A stretch of 64,000 bases of DNA, taken from Gammaproteobacteria bacterium. Lineage in GTDB: Bacteria; Pseudomonadota; Gammaproteobacteria; JAJPIJ01. Of the stretch, positions 11,436 through 21,926 are shown piece by piece. The notes under the pieces are model-generated. The model ran no database searches. It saw only the letters and a program-made list of their open reading frames with translations, and was not told the origin of the DNA. Each line of letters begins with the position of its first letter. The stretch's first letter is position 1. A program made the translations under genes and the position numbers. Location of the stretch: contig JAJVHZ010000011.1 of the NCBI GenBank assembly GCA_022072255.1, positions 39,540 to 103,539 on the forward strand, written 5' to 3'.

Positions 11436-13034
11436 ATGTCGAGGCTGCCAGGCCAGATCTGGATGATCCTCATTGCGGCCGGCGTCCTGTCGCTGATTGC
11501 CTCACTGCTGATCGGCTATCTGTATCGTCGCGCGCTGATCCGCCACATGGGCGGCAGGGCGTCGGATGTGTCGGAAGCGGCCGCGCCACCGGCGGCGATC
11601 GCCGACCGGCGCATGGCCGGCACCCTCGCCGGACGCTACCCCACCGGTTCCGAGAACCGCGCGGCCCAGCGCCGCCTCACGTGGTACATCCTGGCCTTGA
11701 CCGCGTTGGTTGCAGTGTCGGCGGCGGCCCTGCAGTGGCTGCTGCTCTTCGATGTCGAGCTGACGCCCCGGCGGCTGCTGGTCCAATCCGCCGCCTACTT
11801 CTGGATGGCGCTGCCCGCATTGGCCGTGGCCTGGCGGTGGCGGCGCCGGACCCTGATTGCCGCTCTCGCCGTCTATTACGTCCTGTTCGTGGGATTCGGG
11901 ATGAGCCAGTCGACCGAGGCCCAGCAGCTGTCCACCGTCATGAAGCACGGCGCCTTCGCCATCGGCATGCCCATGGTGATAGTGATGCTTTTCGGCCTCG
12001 GCGGCGTGACGCGCGCCATCGGCAGCTGGCTGCTGCCGATCTTCATCCTGCTCGCGGCGGCATCGACGGCGGGCGCCGAGTTTCTCTTCCAGCTGATGGA
12101 GACGTCACCGCGCCTCGTCGAAGGGGCGCTGCAATACCTGAGTGCCGAGGCGGTGATCGCGGGTGCCGTCCTCACCCCGTGGATGCTCGCGATCCTCCCG
12201 GTCGTGTGGCTCTCGCGCCTCGTCGACGGGCTCTACCGGCGCAAGCTGTTCTCGGAGCTGGCCTGGCTGATGACCTCCTTCTGGTTCGTCTGCCTGACGC
12301 TCGAAGTCGCCAGCGGCATGCACGGCGCAGGATTCCATGCACTCTGGATGTATCTGCCGATGCTGTGGTTGCCCGTCACCTTCTACGCGCTGCGCCGTGC
12401 GATGGCGCCGCGGTCGCGGCCGCCCATGCTGCTGGTGTTGCGCGTGTTCCAGCGCGATCGGGAGATGGAGGCGCTGTTCGACGCCGTCATCGAGCGCTGG
12501 CGGGTGACCGGCAACGTGGCGCTCATCGCCGGCACCGATCTGGTCTCGCGCACGATCGACCCGGGCGAGATCTTCGCCTTCCTCGGCGGCCGCATCGACA
12601 GGCAGTTCATCGCCTCCGTCGAGGGCATCCCGGGACGCCTCGCCGCGTTCGACCTGCAGCCGGACATCGAGGGCCGCTACCGCATCAACGAGTGCTATTG
12701 CCGCGACACCACCTGGAAGCCGACGCTCGCTGCCCTGGTCGAGATGAGCGACGTGGTCCTGACGGATCTGCGGCGTTTTCAGGCGCACAACGAGGGCTGT
12801 CGCTACGAGCTCGGGATACTCGCGCGCGCGCGAAACATCGCCCGGGTGGTCGTGCTGTTCGACGGCAAGACCGATCGTGCAGTCGCCGCGCAGGACACGG
12901 CCGGCGCGCCGGCCACGCGTTTCCACTGGATGGACGTGACGTCGCGTGGCAGAGCCGGATGGCGGGAGGCATTGCAGGCCCTGTTCGTCGAACTCCCGGA
13001 CGCGGGCGGGCGGACGGCGCGTCGCGCCGCCTGA
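11436..13034 (+). CDS. Hypothetical polytopic membrane protein (about 8 TM helices) with an about 200-aa cytoplasmic C-terminal alpha/beta domain of unknown function
   Basis: 532 aa. Hydrophobic N-terminal two-thirds rich in Trp. C-terminal region has alternating hydrophobic beta-strand-like segments (LLVLRVF, VALIAGTD, VVLTDLR, RVVVLFDGKTD). No confident family assignment. Confidence 0.55.
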   Translation: MSRLPGQIWMILIAAGVLSLIASLLIGYLYRRALIRHMGGRASDVSEAAAPPAAIADRRMAGTLAGRYPTGSENRAAQRRLTWYILALTALVAVSAAALQWLLLFDVELTPRRLLVQSAAYFWMALPALAVAWRWRRRTLIAALAVYYVLFVGFGMSQSTEAQQLSTVMKHGAFAIGMPMVIVMLFGLGGVTRAIGSWLLPIFILLAAASTAGAEFLFQLMETSPRLVEGALQYLSAEAVIAGAVLTPWMLAILPVVWLSRLVDGLYRRKLFSELAWLMTSFWFVCLTLEVASGMHGAGFHALWMYLPMLWLPVTFYALRRAMAPRSRPPMLLVLRVFQRDREMEALFDAVIERWRVTGNVALIAGTDLVSRTIDPGEIFAFLGGRIDRQFIASVEGIPGRLAAFDLQPDIEGRYRINECYCRDTTWKPTLAALVEMSDVVLTDLRRFQAHNEGCRYELGILARARNIARVVVLFDGKTDRAVAAQDTAGAPATRFHWMDVTSRGRAGWREALQALFVELPDAGGRTARRAA

Positions 13035-13101
13035 AGCGGATGCGCATCTGGCGAGCGACCATCTGCAGCGCGCGGCGAGCCGAACTCAGGGCACGGTGCT
13101 G

Positions 13102-13192
13102 TCACACCGTCCGCCACACGATGTTCCGATGAGTCATGATCCCTTGCAGGAAGCTGGTGGGCGCAGCAGGATTCGATCCTGCAATCAGGGGA
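13102..13192 (-). pseudogene. Degenerate partial copy of the tRNA-CAU 3' half plus its downstream flank (pseudo-tRNA, possible att remnant)
   Basis: About 75% identity over roughly 100 nt to 14122-14225. Shared blocks are tcacaccgtccg, tgagtcatga and tggtgggcNcagcaggattcgaNcctgcaa. No 5' acceptor strand is present. Confidence 0.5.
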
Positions 13193-13331
13193 ACATTAGC
13201 GGGCGGCCAGCAGATAGGAAATTCATTGATCGGCCACTTGCGGCGCCTGCTCTGCGCCAAATGGCGGTTGGCGCAATTCAGAGAGCTGGCAGCGCGGTGA
13301 GCGTTGTCATAGCGGATTGGGGGATATGGGC

Positions 13332-14024
13332 ATGTCAGATACGGCGTTGATTGTTGGCGTGGGCAAGGGCTTGAGTGCGTCGATTGCGCGTCGCCTGGCT
13401 CGCGAAGGTATGCAGGTCGGGATGGCTGCGCGAAATACGGAGAAACTGACCGAACTCGCAAGAGATACAAGGGCGCGAACGTACGCCTGCGATGCATCTG
13501 ACGCGGCTGCGGTCTCGAAGCTGTTCGAGATGGTGGAAGCCGAAGTCGGTATACCCGGGCTCGTGGTATTCAACGCCAGTGATCGCTATCGTGGACCGAT
13601 AGAGACACTTGACCCGGAGCAGGTATGGCGCTCCTACGAGCAGTCCGCGTTTTCAGGATTCCTGGTGGCGCAAGCGGCAGCCAAGTGCATGTTGAGAGCA
13701 GGCCGAGGCTCAATATTTTTCACGGGTGCTACAGCCAGCGTGAAGGCGCTGCCAAGCTCGGTTCCTTTCGCCATGCCGAAATTCGCGCTTCGAGCGTTGG
13801 CGCAAGCCCTTGCCCGTGAACTGTCACCGAAGAATATTCATGTGGCGCATTTCGTGATCGATGGCGGTATCGCTACGAGCTGGACTCGCCCTGGCGAAGA
13901 GGGGCCGCCGGACAGATGGCTCAGCCCGGACGCGATCGCGGAAACTTACCTCCACATCCATCGCCAGCACAGAAGTGCGTGGACGTGGGAGATCGAGCTT
14001 CGGCCGTGGACTGAAAAGTTCTAG
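13332..14024 (+). CDS. Short-chain dehydrogenase/reductase (SDR) family oxidoreductase
   Basis: N-terminal TALIVGVGKGLSASIARRLAREG Rossmann motif and typical SDR length. Start at MSDTALIVG. Confidence 0.7.
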   Translation: MSDTALIVGVGKGLSASIARRLAREGMQVGMAARNTEKLTELARDTRARTYACDASDAAAVSKLFEMVEAEVGIPGLVVFNASDRYRGPIETLDPEQVWRSYEQSAFSGFLVAQAAAKCMLRAGRGSIFFTGATASVKALPSSVPFAMPKFALRALAQALARELSPKNIHVAHFVIDGGIATSWTRPGEEGPPDRWLSPDAIAETYLHIHRQHRSAWTWEIELRPWTEKF

Positions 14025-14192
14025 CGGGCATTGAGGGGGTATCCAGGCAAACAGTCATCCGTTGGATCAGCCACCGGCGGCGCTCGCTCGGTGCCGAATG
14101 GGGGTTGGCCAAAGCTGGTGTCGATGAAACGTGGGGCAGCTCACACCGTCCGGAGCAGGATGTGCAGGTGAGTCATGAGTCCCTGGGGGAAA

Positions 14193-14268
14193 TGGTGGGC
14201 CCGGCAGGATTCGAACCTGCAACCAAGGGATTATGAGTCCCCTGCACTAACCGTTGTGCTACAGGCCC
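14193..14268 (-). tRNA. tRNA with CAU anticodon (tRNA-Met or, more likely, lysidine-modified tRNA-Ile2)
   Basis: Reverse complement GGGCCTGTAGCACAACGGTTAGTGCAGGGGACTCATAATCCCTTGGTTGCAGGTTCGAATCCTGCCGGGCCCACCA folds as a cloverleaf with anticodon CAT and an encoded CCA. Variable loop and anticodon stem resemble ileX-type tRNA. Position downstream of rpoD matches E. coli ileX. Confidence 0.85.
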
Positions 14269-14353
14269 AGTGCGAGATCGCTTTCCCCCCTCACCCTGGC
14301 CCTCTCCCGAGGGGAGAGGGAAGGGCAATCGAGGGTACTGCGGTAATGCGGCG

Positions 14354-16219
<1,866 letters not shown>

Positions 16220-16390
16220 GGGTCTCTGGCGGGTCTAATCTTAACTATCTGTCTGAAAATCGATTTGGGATTCCTGTTGAGACCTAAGTCTAGACCAGGA
16301 ACCGACGGGCGCCAGGGTCGTGGGCGCCCCAAAAAAGACCGCGAATTCTACAGGAGCAGGGCAGGGGCTGTCAGCCGCCGGTCGGGTTCG

Positions 16391-18163
16391 TCACTTCTCC
16401 GGCGCCGACAACTGGCGCAGCAGGGATTTTTCCTCTTCCGTCAGATCTTTCAACGGCTTGCGGGCAAGCTCGGCGCACATGGTCTTGTGTACCAGGTCCC
16501 GCAGCCGCGCTATCGCAGCCAGGAATTCCGCCTCGACGCCGTCGGCCGGGGTGGCCAGTTCCTGCGCCAGCAGCTTCTGCAGGTGCCGCCCCTCCGGGCG
16601 GTCACGCCAGTGCTCGACCAGGGCGCCGCTGCCGACATCGGGATTTGACTGTACAAACGCGATGAGTTCAGCGAGCAGGTCGGCGCCGCCCTGGCCGGAA
16701 CGCACGAGCTGTTCGGCCCGCTCCACCCTGAGCGCCAATGACGGCACGTGCAGCAGCAAGGTGATGGCGAGGCGTACCAGGGAGCGCCCCTCGCGAGGGG
16801 CGGTGCTCCTGCCCTTGCGGGCGTCGTTGCGCGGCGAGGGTGCCCGCACGCCGCCCACCATCGGTGCCAGCGTGCGCAGGTCGAGATCGGACAGCCGCGA
16901 CAGTCGCTGCGCCAGCATCTGCTTGAGCGCGCCGCTCGGCACCGGCGAGAGCAGTGGCTTGGCGAGATCCACCAGCCGGGCGCGGCCGTCCAGGGTGGCG
17001 AGGCTGACCTGCGCGGAGAGCGTGTCGAACAGGAAGTCCGACAGCGGCGTGAACCGCGCGGGATCCTCGAACATCCCCGCGCCTTCCTTGCGCACCAGCG
17101 TATCGGGGTCCTCGCCCGTGGGCAGGAACAGGAAGTTCACGTAGTGCCCCTCGCCGAGCAGGGGCAGCGAGGTCTCGAGCGCCCGCCACGCCGCCCTGCG
17201 TCCGGCCTCGTCGCCGTCGAAGCAGAACACCACCTCGGGAGTCGCGCGGAACAGCCGTTCGAGGTGATCGCGGGTGGTCGCCGTGCCCAGCGTGGCCACG
17301 GCGCCGGTCACGCCGTGCTGGTGCAGGGCGATGACGTCCATGTAGCCCTCGACGACGAACAGCCGCTCGAGCTGCCGGTTGGCCTTGCGCGCGTGAAAGA
17401 GCCCGTAGAGCTCGCGGCCCTTGTGAAAGATGGGGGTCTCCGGGGAATTCAGATACTTCGGCTCGCCCTGTTCGAGGATGCGGCCGCCGAAGCCGATGAC
17501 GCGGCCGCGGTGATCGTGGATCGGGAACATGATGCGATCGCGAAAGCGGTCGTAGTGCCGGCTCTGCCCGGTGGTCGCGCCGGTGCCTTCCTTGGGCACG
17601 AGCATGCCGGCGGCTTCGAGGTCGCGCACCGCCTCCGGCGTGGTGCCCAGGGCCTTGAGCAGACTGTCCCACCCGGGCGGAGCGTAGCCGAGTTTGAAGG
17701 CGGCGGCCGTCTGCCCGTCCAGGCCGCGGGCCTTGAGATATTTCTTCGCGCGCTCCGACTGCGGATGGTCCTTGAGCTCGCGCGAATAGTATTGCTGTGC
17801 CTGCTCGAGCACGGTATAGAGGCGCGCGGCCTCACCGCTCTTCGCACCCGGGCCCGCTCCGGCCTCGGCCGGCACGGTCATGCCGACCCTGGCAGCCAGA
17901 TCGTGCACCGCTTCCACGAAATCGAGCCGGTCGTACTCCATCAGGAAGCCGATCGCGGTGCCGCTCGCGCCGCAGCCGAAGCAGTAGTAGAACTGCTTGT
18001 CGGGGGCGACCGTGAAGGACGGCGTGCGCTCCTCGTGAAACGGGCAGCGCGCCTGGAAGTTCCTGCCGGCCTTCTTCAGCGGCACGCGCTCGTCGATCAC
18101 GTCGACGATGTCGACGCGCGCGAGCAGGTCGTTGATGAAGGATTCCGGAATGCGCCCAGCCAT
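16391..18163 (-). CDS. dnaG: DNA primase DnaG
   Basis: Zinc-ribbon CPFHEERTPSFTV...YYCFGCGASG, a TOPRIM domain and a C-terminal DnaB-interaction region. Lies between rpsU/yqeY and rpoD. Confidence 0.95.
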   Translation of the reverse strand: MAGRIPESFINDLLARVDIVDVIDERVPLKKAGRNFQARCPFHEERTPSFTVAPDKQFYYCFGCGASGTAIGFLMEYDRLDFVEAVHDLAARVGMTVPAEAGAGPGAKSGEAARLYTVLEQAQQYYSRELKDHPQSERAKKYLKARGLDGQTAAAFKLGYAPPGWDSLLKALGTTPEAVRDLEAAGMLVPKEGTGATTGQSRHYDRFRDRIMFPIHDHRGRVIGFGGRILEQGEPKYLNSPETPIFHKGRELYGLFHARKANRQLERLFVVEGYMDVIALHQHGVTGAVATLGTATTRDHLERLFRATPEVVFCFDGDEAGRRAAWRALETSLPLLGEGHYVNFLFLPTGEDPDTLVRKEGAGMFEDPARFTPLSDFLFDTLSAQVSLATLDGRARLVDLAKPLLSPVPSGALKQMLAQRLSRLSDLDLRTLAPMVGGVRAPSPRNDARKGRSTAPREGRSLVRLAITLLLHVPSLALRVERAEQLVRSGQGGADLLAELIAFVQSNPDVGSGALVEHWRDRPEGRHLQKLLAQELATPADGVEAEFLAAIARLRDLVHKTMCAELARKPLKDLTEEEKSLLRQLSAPEK

Positions 18164-18238
18164 CTCGGGCGTAGGATAACCGAGGCGGCGGCCGCTGCGT
18201 TTTTCCGGCAGACGGCCGGGAGCCGGCGGGCGGGGAGA

Positions 18239-18685
18239 CTAACCGCCGAGTTTATGCCTCACCCTGGCGGAGACCACCGTCATGTCGGCCTTGCCCGCGA
18301 GCTTCTGCTTCAGGGCTCCCATCACCTTGCCCATGTCCCTGGCGCTGGCGGCGCCGGTGGCGGCGATGACCTCGGCGACCGCCGTGTCGATCTCCGCCTC
18401 GGAGAGCTGCGCCGGCAGGAAGCCCTGGACGATGCCGATCTCGAACTGCTCCTGCTCGGCCAGATCCGGCCGGTTGCCGGCCTGGTACTGCTGAATGGAG
18501 TCGCGGCGCTGTTTGACCATCTTCTCCAGTGTCGCCATCACCTGTGCGTCGTCGAGCGTGATCCGTTCGTCGACTTCCTTCTGTTTGATGGCCGCCGTGA
18601 TCAGCCGCAACACGCCCAGGCGCCGTTTGTCCTGGGCGCGCATGGCGGTCTTCACTTCATCGCTGATGCGATCCTTTAAACTCAC
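18239..18685 (-). CDS. GatB/YqeY domain-containing protein
   Basis: VSLKDRISDEVKTAMRAQDKRRLGVLRLITAAIKQ matches the YqeY N-terminus. Start taken at the GTG near 18685. The track's extended ORF N-terminus looks non-coding. Confidence 0.7.
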   Translation of the reverse strand: MSLKDRISDEVKTAMRAQDKRRLGVLRLITAAIKQKEVDERITLDDAQVMATLEKMVKQRRDSIQQYQAGNRPDLAEQEQFEIGIVQGFLPAQLSEAEIDTAVAEVIAATGAASARDMGKVMGALKQKLAGKADMTVVSARVRHKLGG

Positions 18686-18743
18686 GGTCGGCAGAAAGTG
18701 TGCGGCGCGCCATCGGGCGCGCCGTAGCGGGCTTCGACAGGGA

Positions 18744-19028
18744 TTAGAACGAACGTGGGCCGCGGGGGCCGCCACGACCACCGGCGCGTGCGGCATTGCG
18801 CTGTGCGGCCGCGCGGGCGCGCTGGGCCATGGTCATGTTCGAGCGAATCATCTTCTTCTGCCAGCGTTTCACCGCCGCGGCGGCCTTGCGCTTGCGCACC
18901 TGGGTCGGCTTCTCGTAAAACTCGCGGCGATGGATCTCGGCAAGGATGCCGGCCTTCTCGCAGGCGCGCTTGAAGCGACGCAGGGCGACGTCGAACGGCT
19001 CGTTCTCACGGACTTTGACTGACGGCAT
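18744..19028 (-). CDS. rpsU: 30S ribosomal protein S21
   Basis: [48 protein letters not shown], with AGGAG 7 nt upstream. Has a C-terminal basic extension. Confidence 0.9.
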
Positions 19029-19086
19029 TCGTACTCCTAACGCTGAACGGCAGGTGTTTGAAAGGGCGGGTATTGTAGTGGACGAC

Positions 19087-20160
19087 ATGGTAATTGCAAA
19101 GCCGAAATCGGCGCCCGCGGAGGCGGTTGCCGGGCCGGTGCTGGGCGTGGAAACCTCCTGCGACGAGACCGGAGTGGCCGTCTATGATCCGCGCCTCGGA
19201 CCGGGCGCGGGACTGCTCGCGCACGTGCTGTACAGCCAGGTCGATCTGCACGCGAAGTACGGCGGCATCGTGCCGGAGCTGGCCTCCCGCGACCACGTCC
19301 GCAAGACCCTGCCACTCGTCCGGGAAGTCCTTCATGCGGCAGGTGTTTCCGCCCGCGACCTGGGCGGTGTGGCGTATACGGCCGGACCGGGCCTGATCGG
19401 GGCGCTGCTGGTCGGGGCGGCAATAGGTCGTTCGCTGGCCTGGTCGCTGCGGATACCCGCCATCGCCGTGCACCACATGGAGGCCCACCTGCTGGCGCCT
19501 CTGCTGGAGCCGGATCCGCCGACCTTCCCGTTCGTCGCCCTGTTGGTGTCCGGCGGCCACACCCAGCTGTTCCGGGTCGACGGCCTCGGCCGCTACACCC
19601 TGCTCGGGGAGTCGCTGGACGATGCCGCCGGCGAGGCCTTCGACAAGACCGCCAAGCTGCTCGGGCTGGGCTATCCCGGCGGTCCGGCGATCGAGCGGCT
19701 GGCCCGCGACGGCAATCCGGATCGCTTCGACTTCCCGCGTCCCATGACCAACCGGCCCGGCCTGGATTTCAGTTTCTCCGGCCTCAAGACCTACGCCCTG
19801 AACACGCTGCAGCAGGAGGGCGGCGACGCGCAGACCAAGGCCGACATCGCGCGGGCCTTCTCCGAGGCGGTCGTGGAGACGCTCGCCATCAAATGCCGCC
19901 GCGCGCTGGCGCAGACCGGGATGAAGTGTCTCATCGCCGCCGGCGGGGTGAGCGCGAACGCGAGGCTGCGGGAGCGCCTGGCGGAGATCGCCGCCGAGTT
20001 CGGCGCGCGCGTGGTCTATCCGCGTCCGGCCTTCTGCACCGACAACGGTGCGATGATCGCCTTTGCCGGCGCCCTTCGCCTCGCGGCCGGCTACCGCGAG
20101 CCGCTTGCCTTCAGGGCCTATCCGCGCTGGCCGATGGCAGAGCTGCCGCCGGCGGCCTGA
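19087..20160 (+). CDS. tsaD: tRNA N6-adenosine threonylcarbamoyltransferase TsaD
   Basis: [17 protein letters not shown] and [10 protein letters not shown] metal-binding motifs. Divergent from rpsU as in E. coli. An alternative GTG start at 19138 with GGAGG upstream would give an E. coli-like N-terminus. Confidence 0.85.
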
Positions 20161-20409
20161 CGGAGCTGGTCGAGTCCCCAGCAAGACGGATCATCCTCGG
20201 CGGACTGCCGGTGCCCGCCCGGCTACCGCTGCGCGGTCCATCCATGTACCGCTTGCTACCGCGGCGTCGTGCTCGTCCATCCCTGCTGCGCGCCGCCGAG
20301 GCGCGCCAGGCAGGCACCGGCAGTCCGCTCGAAACCCCGTGCTGTGCCGAATGGCCGGCAGACCGCCCCCCGCGCACGCCGCAACCAAAGAAGGGCGGCA
20401 CTGCGGCGA

Positions 20410-21024
20410 CTAGGGCTCGGCGGAAGACTTGCTGCCGATGCGCGATTCCGTGCCGTCGATGAGCTTCCGGATGTTGGAGCGATGCCGCCAGAGGAGCAGC
20501 GCGACCATGGCGAGGATGGCCAGCACGCTCAGCGCTGGATAGCCGCGGAACCAGGCGTACAGCGGCGTGAGCACCGCTGCCGTGATCGCGGCGAGCGAGG
20601 ACAGCTTGCTCAGCCTGGCGACCACGAACCAGATCACCACGAAGAAGATGGCCAGCGGCCACGCGATGCCGAGCAGCGCGCCGATGAGGGTCGCCACTCC
20701 CTTGCCGCCCTGGAACTGGAAGAAGACGGGATACAGATGGCCCAGGAAGGCGGCGAATCCGATAGCCGCCAGCGCATCGATCGGCAGGCCCAGGGCGCGT
20801 CCGAGGAGCACCGGCAACAGCCCCTTCAGCGAATCGCCGAGCAGCGTCGCGGCGGCCGCCTTCCTGCCGGCGACGCGTAGCACGTTGGTGGCGCCCGGGT
20901 TGCCGGAACCGACGGTGCGCGGATCCGGCGCGCCGATCGCGCGGCAGACGATGATGGCCGCCGACAGGGAGCCGAGCAGATACGCGACGACGATGAGAAT
21001 GGCTGCGGTCATCAGGGCCGCCAT
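20410..21024 (-). CDS. plsY: Glycerol-3-phosphate acyltransferase PlsY
   Basis: About 205-aa membrane protein with GSGNPGATN and FKGGKGVAT motifs. Start at MAALMTAAIL. Confidence 0.85.
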   Translation of the reverse strand: MAALMTAAILIVVAYLLGSLSAAIIVCRAIGAPDPRTVGSGNPGATNVLRVAGRKAAAATLLGDSLKGLLPVLLGRALGLPIDALAAIGFAAFLGHLYPVFFQFQGGKGVATLIGALLGIAWPLAIFFVVIWFVVARLSKLSSLAAITAAVLTPLYAWFRGYPALSVLAILAMVALLLWRHRSNIRKLIDGTESRIGSKSSAEP

Positions 21025-21110
21025 TGGACTGGCTCGCGCTTGACAGGTCAAGATCGCATCGGTTTTAGTGGCGGGCGGGCAGGGCGATCAGAGAACATTC
21101 AAATAGATCC

Positions 21111-21464
21111 ATGGACATCGTCTACATCCACGACCTGCGCATCGAGGCGACCATCGGCGTGTTCGAGTGGGAGCGGCGCATACGTCAGACGCTGGTCATC
21201 GATCTGGACTTCGGCATCGACAACCGCCGGCCCGCCGCGACCGACGATCTGCGCGATACGATCGACTACGGCGCGGTCGCCACGCGCGTCACCGCCTACG
21301 TCGAGGAGAGCAATTTCAGCCTGGTGGAGACGCTGGCCGAGCGCATCGCCGAGCTACTGCTCAACGAATTCAACGTGCCGTGGGTGCGGTTGAAGATCAA
21401 CAAGCAGGGCGCGGTGCGCGGCGTGCGCGACGTCGGCGTGATCATCGAGCGCGGTCACTGCTGA
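21111..21464 (+). CDS. folB: Dihydroneopterin aldolase
   Basis: 117 aa beginning MDIVYIHDLRIEATIGVFEWER, typical of FolB. Neighbours plsY and tsaD as in E. coli. Confidence 0.85.
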   Translation: MDIVYIHDLRIEATIGVFEWERRIRQTLVIDLDFGIDNRRPAATDDLRDTIDYGAVATRVTAYVEESNFSLVETLAERIAELLLNEFNVPWVRLKINKQGAVRGVRDVGVIIERGHC

Positions 21465-21491
21465 TCACGCGGCGGCGCGCGAGGGGAGCGT

Positions 21492-21926
21492 ATGAAGAAA
21501 CTCGTCATGTTCATGGGCGCCGTCGGATTGCTGCTGGGCGGCTGCGGCAGCCTGCAGTCGCAGAAGCGGGCCAACGCGCTGTCCGACACGCTCAACGAGT
21601 ATCGCATCCTGATGCGCTGGGGGGATTACGAGAGCGCGCTCACCTATGTCCGGTTCCGCCCCGGCAAGGCCCAGGAGCTCCCAGAGGTGGATCTCGACGC
21701 GCTGAAACAGGTCCGGCTCGCGTCCTACGACGTGATCGAACAGGTCGTGACGCCGGAGGAGACCGAGGCGGAAGTCAAGGTGGCGATGACCTACTACCAC
21801 GAGGAATCCAACGTTCTGCACACCCTCATCCAGAGGCAGCACTGGTGGTACGACGGCGAGCGGAATCGCTGGTATCTCGAGACCGAGTTCCCGGACCTCA
21901 TCGGCAACATGCAGAAAGACCGTTGA
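21492..21926 (+). CDS. Hypothetical lipoprotein
   Basis: Lipobox LLGGCGS after a signal peptide. 144 aa with no confident family. Confidence 0.5.
   Translation: MKKLVMFMGAVGLLLGGCGSLQSQKRANALSDTLNEYRILMRWGDYESALTYVRFRPGKAQELPEVDLDALKQVRLASYDVIEQVVTPEETEAEVKVAMTYYHEESNVLHTLIQRQHWWYDGERNRWYLETEFPDLIGNMQKDR

Follow-up and report, generated by a model that had tools for sequence, protein, structure and literature searches.

Background

Islands that integrate by means of an integrase leave a standard signature, namely a regenerated tRNA gene together with a displaced 3' fragment beginning in the anticodon loop. Among tDNA islands, this loop is the sublocation at which crossovers are most common, with 2083 of the 3919 cases in Islander (PMC4383910). 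In the literature on ICEs and IMEs, an element that keeps attL and attR but is without integration genes is known as a CIME, and the tandem accretion of ICE and IME remnants at the same target has been described for streptococcal elements (PMC5704250).

The present analysis concerns a window of 64,000 nucleotides, i.e. the whole stretch of DNA considered, from an uncultured gammaproteobacterial lineage. It contains a tRNA gene with anticodon CAT, a partial second copy of this gene and of its trailing flank, and a short islet between both copies (Table 1). The repeat copies are interpreted here as the attachment-site scars of a tyrosine-integrase-type integration into a tRNA-Ile2(CAU) gene and the islet as a decayed, integrase-less remnant, a reading that is given a probability of about 75%. 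Loci of relatives are referred to by their L numbers.

Compared with the Islander-type islands (PMC4383910), several properties are shared. Firstly, the intact tRNA gene would have been regenerated by island sequence, and a cognate fragment lies at the far end, on its 3' side, on the same strand and in direct orientation. Secondly, this fragment starts in the anticodon loop ('A' attachment site), one of the recognised crossover sublocations besides the T loop and the T/acceptor junction. Thirdly, the cargo is of foreign composition, and both alternative islands and empty sites occur at the same tDNA, the uninterrupted target site being present in the relatives L087 and L085. In contrast with those islands, which depend on tyrosine or P4-like integrases, the islet of the window measures 0.94 kb and carries one gene, no tyrosine integrase gene (PF00589) is found between tDNA and fragment, and the repeats are 78% rather than approximately 100% identical. 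Similarly, the islet resembles a CIME in being flanked by attL and attR (copies only 78% identical) without integration and transfer genes. Tandem accretion is paralleled by the tandem elements at the same tRNA in L103 and by an apparent two-unit array in the islet itself. The tandem of L103 with another island, and an element end (Y) that is shared with the larger island of L098, fit the decay and cis-mobilisation of CIMEs; neither a parent ICE or IME nor mobilisation was seen. Differences are that the att repeats of the window are decayed, present-day mobilisation in trans being doubtful, and that the host is an uncultured gammaproteobacterium instead of a streptococcus.

The feature is of an ordinary kind, a tRNA hot spot being occupied by a decayed island or an islet resembling a CIME, and its main value lies in annotation and in the reading of the history of this genome. 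Only three points are mildly unusual: the remnant is tiny, it apparently consists of two units in tandem, and its repeat reaches into the tRNA trailer. None of them challenges current understanding.

Results

The tRNA gene and its conserved neighbours

Both ARAGORN and Rfam found a single tRNA gene in the window, located 85 nt downstream of rpoD, which itself follows dnaG. Although ARAGORN labelled this gene as Met, three observations point to a tRNA of the tRNA-Ile2 (lysidine) type. Inspection of its sequence shows C4-G69, C5-G68, and G27-U43, which are identity elements for TilS; its closest E. coli match, among 5,426 E. coli genomes, is an annotated tRNA-Ile (81.6% identity); and the order of rpoD followed by tRNA-CAU is kept across the gammaproteobacterial loci examined. 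It resembles E. coli ileX in type (best match tRNA-Ile) and in position after rpoD, where E. coli presumably carries an ileX-type tRNA-Ile2 gene, and shows nothing unusual in this comparison. The gene is 100% identical in L087, L085, and L099-L103. With respect to the islet, it represents attL, its 3' part of 45 nt being the proximal copy of the tRNA portion of the repeat (T3''). Rfam matched the tRNA alone over the region. An intron or split tRNA was rejected as a candidate, since the tRNA is continuous and no match to the Rfam family Intron_gpI was found in 12800-14500 at E values up to 10.

The neighbour on the other side is a gene for a predicted membrane protein of 532 amino acids; in L087 and L085, the relatives with the empty site, this gene lies beside the flank of the tRNA. 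The protein has no Pfam domain but more than 100 homologues, in Burkholderiales, Propionivibrio, Dechloromonas MAGs, and others, and the dN/dS of the gene compared with L103 is 0.35, indicating fairly relaxed constraint. In L085, the stop codon of this gene has been lost, and the called ORF of 584 amino acids reads through the trailer into the tRNA gene.

Table 1 Coordinates of the islet components and of the genes on both sides, by position in the window
Feature	Position	Strand	Description
532-aa membrane protein gene	11436-13034	+	Neighbour on the far side of the islet; no Pfam match
L	13035-13101		Native intergenic DNA, from the stop codon of the 532-aa gene to the flank
F*	13102-13154	-	Distal copy of the 52-nt flank; continuous with native intergenic DNA
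T3'*	13155-13199	-	Displaced, decaying copy of tRNA positions ~32-76 (attR side)
Y1	13200 to ~13285		Conserved element end, joined to T3'* at the anticodon-loop breakpoint
SDR gene	13332-14024	+	Short-chain dehydrogenase/reductase, 230 aa; Pfam adh_short 3e-28
Y2	14029-14109		Second copy of the element end
Joint Y2-F'	14110-14140		31 nt without clear homologue; weak resemblance of the final ~10 nt to the end of L
F'	14141-14192	-	Proximal copy of the 52-nt flank, which trails the tRNA immediately on its 3' side
T3''	14193-14237	-	Proximal copy of the tRNA part of the repeat
tRNA gene	14193-14268	-	Anticodon CAT; ARAGORN; Rfam tRNA, 73 bits
rpoD	14354-16219	-	Next gene upstream of the tRNA; Pfam sigma-70 regions 1.1 to 4

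The direct repeat and its distal copy

A blastn comparison within the window retrieved a direct repeat consisting of 13102-13199 and 14141-14237 (98 columns, one gap, 77.6% identity, E 6e-18). An earlier, sequence-only reading had proposed a duplicate of half the tRNA gene plus its downstream flank; this duplicate is real and all four conserved blocks quoted for it are present, but its second segment had been placed at 14122-14225, which needs correction to the coordinates given here. The local alignment score of the repeat is 52, far from the background of 9.4 ± 1.4 (maximum 16) obtained with 1000 dinucleotide shuffles, so that chance similarity of the copies was rejected; apart from this pair, no score in the 64 kb exceeds 15.

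The repeat comprises 45 nt of the tRNA-CAU gene, from the anticodon loop (position ~32) to the 3' end, and the 52 nt of flank that follow. Between the two copies in the window, identity amounts to 82% for the tRNA portion (37 of 45 positions) and to approximately 72-76% for the flank, and all eight differences in the tRNA portion occur in the distal copy (T3'*) alone. Because it starts in the anticodon loop and is without tRNA positions 1-31, the distal copy is a pseudo-fragment, as had already been supposed, and neither ARAGORN nor Rfam called it as a tRNA. Its end coincides with the nucleotide at which the perfect displaced fragment of L098 ends. The distal flank (F*) is 74-77% identical to the flank of relatives and, together with 13006-13101, aligns unbroken with L087, L085, and L098.

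Compared with the consensus of three outgroups, the distal copy differs at 8 of 45 sites in the tRNA part and at 12 of 53 sites in the flank (range 18-23%). The adjacent native spacer (L), which is 75-87% identical to that of L087, L085, and L098, differs at 8 of the 53 sites (15%) where these three outgroups agree. By these figures, the distal copy looks like neutrally decaying DNA. Decay was independent in the window fragment and in the L103 fragment, the mutations of one differing from those of the other in position or in base. As to annotation, the pseudo-tRNA at 13.1 kb deserves the label of an att scar.

Anatomy of the islet

On the plus strand, the order of components is L, F*, T3'*, Y1, the SDR gene, a trace of 4-7 nt, Y2, the joint, F', T3'', and the 5' part of the tRNA gene. 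Y1 is homologous to L098 1120-1203 and L103 3971-4047 (~75% identity). In addition, a second, internal repeat was found (13194-13272 and 14029-14109; 72% identity over 82 columns), with a score of 28 compared with 9.4 ± 1.3 (maximum 15) for shuffles. The alignment of Y2 opens with the 4-7 nt of the trace, which are similar to the tRNA fragment at its anticodon-loop end (CATTGAG). The start of Y2 was also found after the SDR stop codon in L103, and the structure is therefore older than the split of the two SDR copies.

The internal repeat suggests the presence of two gutted elements in tandem. Indeed, an arrangement in which tRNA 3' part and Y end alternate with cargo (T3|Y-cargo-T3|Y-...-T3) is most simply explained in this way; the distal element would have retained the SDR gene, and the proximal one would have shrunk to Y2, the joint, and F'. 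The tandem history of the islet is thus probable rather than directly visible.

Between the repeats, Pfam searches of the ORFs retrieved no integrase or transfer genes, the SDR gene being the only ORF with a Pfam match. No integrase lies beside the repeats either, both sides consisting of housekeeping or conserved genes that are syntenic in relatives. Similarly, tblastn with the integrase of L055 gave nothing in the window and, among all loci, matched its own locus only, in agreement with the earlier statement that no integrase is present.

Occupancy of the site in relatives

A scan of a species-level genome collection with the N-terminus of RpoD yielded distant relatives only (at most 65% identity); close relatives were obtained by exact-protein look-ups. 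At least five occupancy states exist among genomes with RpoD sequences at least 95% identical.

The arrangement of the window was found in L001, L002, and L097, representing strains that are 98-100% identical. The empty site, composed of the 532-aa gene, ~67 nt of L, the 52-nt flank, one tRNA gene, and rpoD, is present in L087 and L085, of which the 532-aa proteins are 85% and 88% identical to that of the window, respectively; L083, L084, L086, and L088 are likewise listed as sites without SDR gene or duplicate. Window segments 13006-13192 and 14142-14360 both align to L087 and overlap there on one stretch of 89 nt. Hence, the islet is an insertion; the sequence-only reading had named the comparison of the rpoD-tRNA region in related genomes as the check on this point.

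A different island with the same junction occupies L098. There, L and the flank are followed by a perfect 45-nt tRNA fragment (ending in ...GGGATTATGAG), joined at that point to DNA homologous to window 13200-13282. The cargo beyond this junction extends over at least 6.5 kb of 58% GC (the island being partly covered) and includes GGDEF/EAL and two-component genes. In L099-L101, a large element with genes for Excalibur, AraC, CsrA, and a 1716-aa SLT/LPD38 protein follows directly after the tRNA; judged from this gene content, it looks like a conjugative or phage-like island. It was located at 12076-21863, its far end and its integrase lying beyond the DNA covered, in genomes with 97-98% identical RpoD. 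L102 has a 'Fer4' island directly after the tRNA. The small ORFs of the islands of L098, L101, and L102 gave uninformative Pfam results.

In L103 (with L104 and L089), the SDR islet and the 'Fer4' island occur in tandem. The order in L103 is the tRNA, 27 nt of flank, a few nucleotides, the SDR gene, a stretch homologous to Y, a degenerate tRNA fragment of 28 nt, the 'Fer4' island of 5.9 kb, and the 532-aa gene. As the 'Fer4' island beyond the SDR gene is the one that sits directly at the tRNA in L102, this order reflects tandem accretion. The 'Fer4' island (L103 4076-9965; L102 12147-17050; also in L089) encodes a ferredoxin, an M28 peptidase, an RNase H-like RVT_3 protein, Zip, and an alkyl sulfatase. 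In L103 and L089, it reaches right up to the stop codon of the 532-aa gene, neither trailer nor tRNA fragment having survived there, and in L102 the 532-aa and 139-aa genes are both missing; deletions have therefore eroded the distal side of the hot spot.

The more distant L055 (Porticoccus) has the orthologous tRNA with an 8.8-kb island that encodes an Arm-DNA-bind_3 plus Phage_integrase protein; its repeat, perfect over 47 nt, begins at the same position of the anticodon loop. Indeed, the tRNA fragment starts at the same anticodon-loop nucleotide in the window, L098, L103, and L055. At every relative locus examined, a single tRNA was present, with or without an island after it; in L085, L087, and L099-L104, there is one tRNA per locus. 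The junction between rpoD and tRNA-Ile2 is a recombination hot spot in this lineage.

For the 532-aa gene, dS with respect to the window is 0.17 for L085 (empty) and 0.28 for L103 (occupied). Because the empty L085 is closer to the window than the occupied L103, loss or horizontal spread is required; either the islet was lost in L085, presumably by recombination between the repeats, or it moved between lineages.

The SDR gene

The SDR gene is the single intact gene between the repeat copies, in line with its earlier description as a lone gene, and is convergent with the tRNA. Its GC3 is 0.645, compared with 0.84-0.93 in seven neighbouring genes, and the GC content of the inserted stretch is 60%, versus 67% for the window. 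The closest outside homologues (74-77% amino acid identity) reside in an unrelated SDR-PpoB2-DUF1326 chromosomal context, and at the DNA level they are similar over the coding sequence only. Composition and context thereby mark the SDR gene as foreign and horizontally acquired.

The SDR of L103 is 94% identical to that of the window at the amino acid level (dS 0.37, dN 0.028). The resulting dN/dS of 0.08 indicates that the gene is kept by purifying selection, i.e. that it represents functional cargo, no other cargo having survived. At the place of the classical catalytic YxxxK motif, the window SDR reads VPFAMPK, so that a phenylalanine may replace the catalytic tyrosine; even so, purifying selection on the gene is strong.

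The trailing flank within the repeat

The repeat of the window overruns the end of the tRNA by 52 nt, unlike that of the other islands at the rpoD-tRNA locus. In L055 the repeat, and in all four of L099-L102 the similarity to the window, stops where the tRNA has its 3' end. This extension is the one feature for which a simple core does not account, and it is atypical even at this locus; the sequence-only reading had rightly singled it out. A structural or terminator role of the 52-nt flank was ruled out as a candidate by fold z-scores of -0.6 to +0.8, i.e. no significant fold, and by a terminator search that found no terminator-like site.

Given a crossover in the anticodon loop, the proximal flank (F') must have come with the element. 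F' is 81-87% identical to the flank of the empty-site relatives, and its window-specific divergence is 7 of 52 sites, versus 8 of 53 for the native spacer L. The F' sequences of the window and L103 are no more alike than either is to native flanks. With three outgroups, 36 sites of the flank show no difference between the copies and the outgroups, ten are unique to the distal copy, five are unique to the proximal copy, and two are shared-derived, a count that is undermined by the mosaic nature of L002.

L002, which carries the SDR islet, is otherwise more than 99.6% identical to the window but has five SNPs within 14163-14192 (L002 2466-2495). Four of the five match the state in the trailer of at least one relative, the A-to-T change at 14192 being present in L085 only. 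The fifth is a T-to-C change at 14163, where relatives have T; the C of L098 lies one base earlier. At these positions, L002 is a local recombination mosaic.

The inclusion of the 52-nt flank in the repeat is probably a matter of the origin of F', for which two sources may be considered. Firstly, the attP arm on the tRNA side may carry, in this clade-specific element family, a trailer homologous to that of the host; the attP would then be of usual size, consisting of ~90 nt of Y, the core, 45 nt, and 52 nt. Secondly, an earlier imprecise excision may have captured the trailer from a related host. In lambda gal/bio-type specialised transducing genomes, aberrant excision captures adjacent host DNA. 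By analogy, such an event would account for element-borne host flank by the core and for the permuted order Y2-joint-F'-T3''. The analogy differs from the present case in that no excised form or phage genes were seen, and it is one of the two explanations for F'.

Discussion

Origin of the islet

The interpretation of the islet as an integration remnant follows from the empty sites, the shared breakpoint, the alternative islands, the foreign composition, and the Y1/Y2 repeat. Of the two readings offered from the sequence alone, the att remnant is the one that gains from the empty sites of L087 and L085 and from other islands being joined at the same anticodon-loop nucleotide. The insertion itself was probably performed by an integrase. 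The scenario would start with site-specific integration into the tRNA-Ile2(CAU) gene that lies downstream of rpoD, at its anticodon loop, whereby the incoming DNA gave the tRNA a new 3' part (now T3''). The original 3' part would have been displaced by approximately 1 kb, to decay as a pseudogene (now T3'*). Subsequently, the element may have lost its integrase and nearly everything else, leaving the 0.94-kb islet (13200-14192) with Y1, the SDR gene, Y2, and F'. The order T3'*|Y1-SDR-(T3' trace)|Y2-F'-T3'' would correspond to two gutted elements integrated in tandem, and the overrun of 52 nt would mean that the tRNA-side arm of the incoming DNA bore a trailer homologous to that of the host.

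Several observations count against this scenario. No integrase was found in the window or in any element with a Y end (L098 being only partly covered). F' should be element-borne, yet F' of the window and of L103 resembles the native flanks of relatives, and the two shared-derived sites hint that both copies in the window are native. Furthermore, the empty L085 is closer to the window than the occupied L103, and the tRNA trace before Y2 spans only 4-7 nt. An intact donor element or attP was not found in viral, plasmid, phage, or metagenome searches. In scans for the flank and for the Y motif, metagenomes yielded L085 again and nothing else, and viral collections gave nothing or chance matches of 24-26 nt. 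A blastn search of the whole unit against plasmids and phages gave similarity in the tRNA and the SDR coding sequence only.

Alternative explanations

A rival reading is Campbell-type homologous recombination via the 98-nt homology, without an integrase in the final event. A circular or linear fragment with the SDR gene and with its own copy of flank and tRNA 3' part, for example aberrantly excised from a related strain, would have entered the chromosome and thereby duplicated the homology; the native copy may then be the proximal one, and the foreign copy the distal one. This course of events would fit a repeat that takes in 52 nt of non-tRNA flank and possibly ~10 nt of L, as well as an F' that is native-like both in its identity to relatives and in its divergence, which matches that of L. 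Allelic recombination inside F' is seen in L002, and the order Y2-joint-F'-T3'' is the expected content of a circle excised with adjacent host DNA. However, three lineages and the L055 island, which has an integrase, agree in the anticodon-loop nucleotide at which the tRNA-side repeat end and its junction to Y are found, and this argues for a site-specific crossover. Moreover, 98 nt at ~80% identity is a poor substrate for RecA, and the Y junction would still have been made earlier by an integrase, so that only the last step is altered. Homologous recombination as the final event is considered unlikely.

Less probable still, and put forward as a speculation, is a role for the combination of tRNA 3' part, 52-nt trailer, and Y end as the recombination module of clade-specific, tiny, integrase-less cassettes with single metabolic genes that are moved in trans. 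The integrases of the larger islands, using the same site, would shuttle such cassettes into and out of the tRNA-Ile2 locus. If so, the SDR islet would still be mobile and no dead scar, and its occurrence in the contexts of both the window and L103, as well as its absence from the closer L085, would be explained.

A local duplication of the flank and the tRNA 3' part, through a replication error or a long staggered break filled in with unrelated SDR DNA, would involve no mobile element, in accordance with the two shared-derived sites between the copies and with the absence of an integrase. It is highly improbable, as the distal copy adjoins a Y sequence that L098 and L103 share and that is found beside other cargo there. 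In addition, the locus holds at least four further types of island in relatives, and the breakpoint coincides with a known integrase crossover site.

Lastly, a relic of an ancient tandem tRNA-CAU array, with one gene truncated by the SDR insertion, would predict the joint duplication of flank and tRNA part, but this alternative, also raised by the sequence-only reading, was rejected with near certainty, given that no relative examined has a second intact tRNA at the locus, that the two copies of the window both map to the one copy in the empty site, and that the truncation coincides in position with the junctions of the islands in L098, L103, and L055.

Other insertions near the tRNA gene in relatives

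In several distant relatives, hosted by Steroidobacteraceae, Woeseiaceae, and similar MAGs, a group I intron (RF00028, 57-78 bits) splits the orthologous tRNA-CAU after the anticodon (L019 11989-12227, L008 12007-12278, L051 9786-10069, and L013 12409-12647), which is why ARAGORN misses the tRNA genes of these relatives. In addition, a MITE-like hairpin insert occurs in the spacer between rpoD and the tRNA in L085 (3956-4083), L101 (11869-11990), and L102 (11886-11964). Absent from the window, L087, and L103, this insert has terminal inverted repeats of ~17 nt (GGGGTCGGAGTGATTTA...TAAATCACTCCGACCCC).
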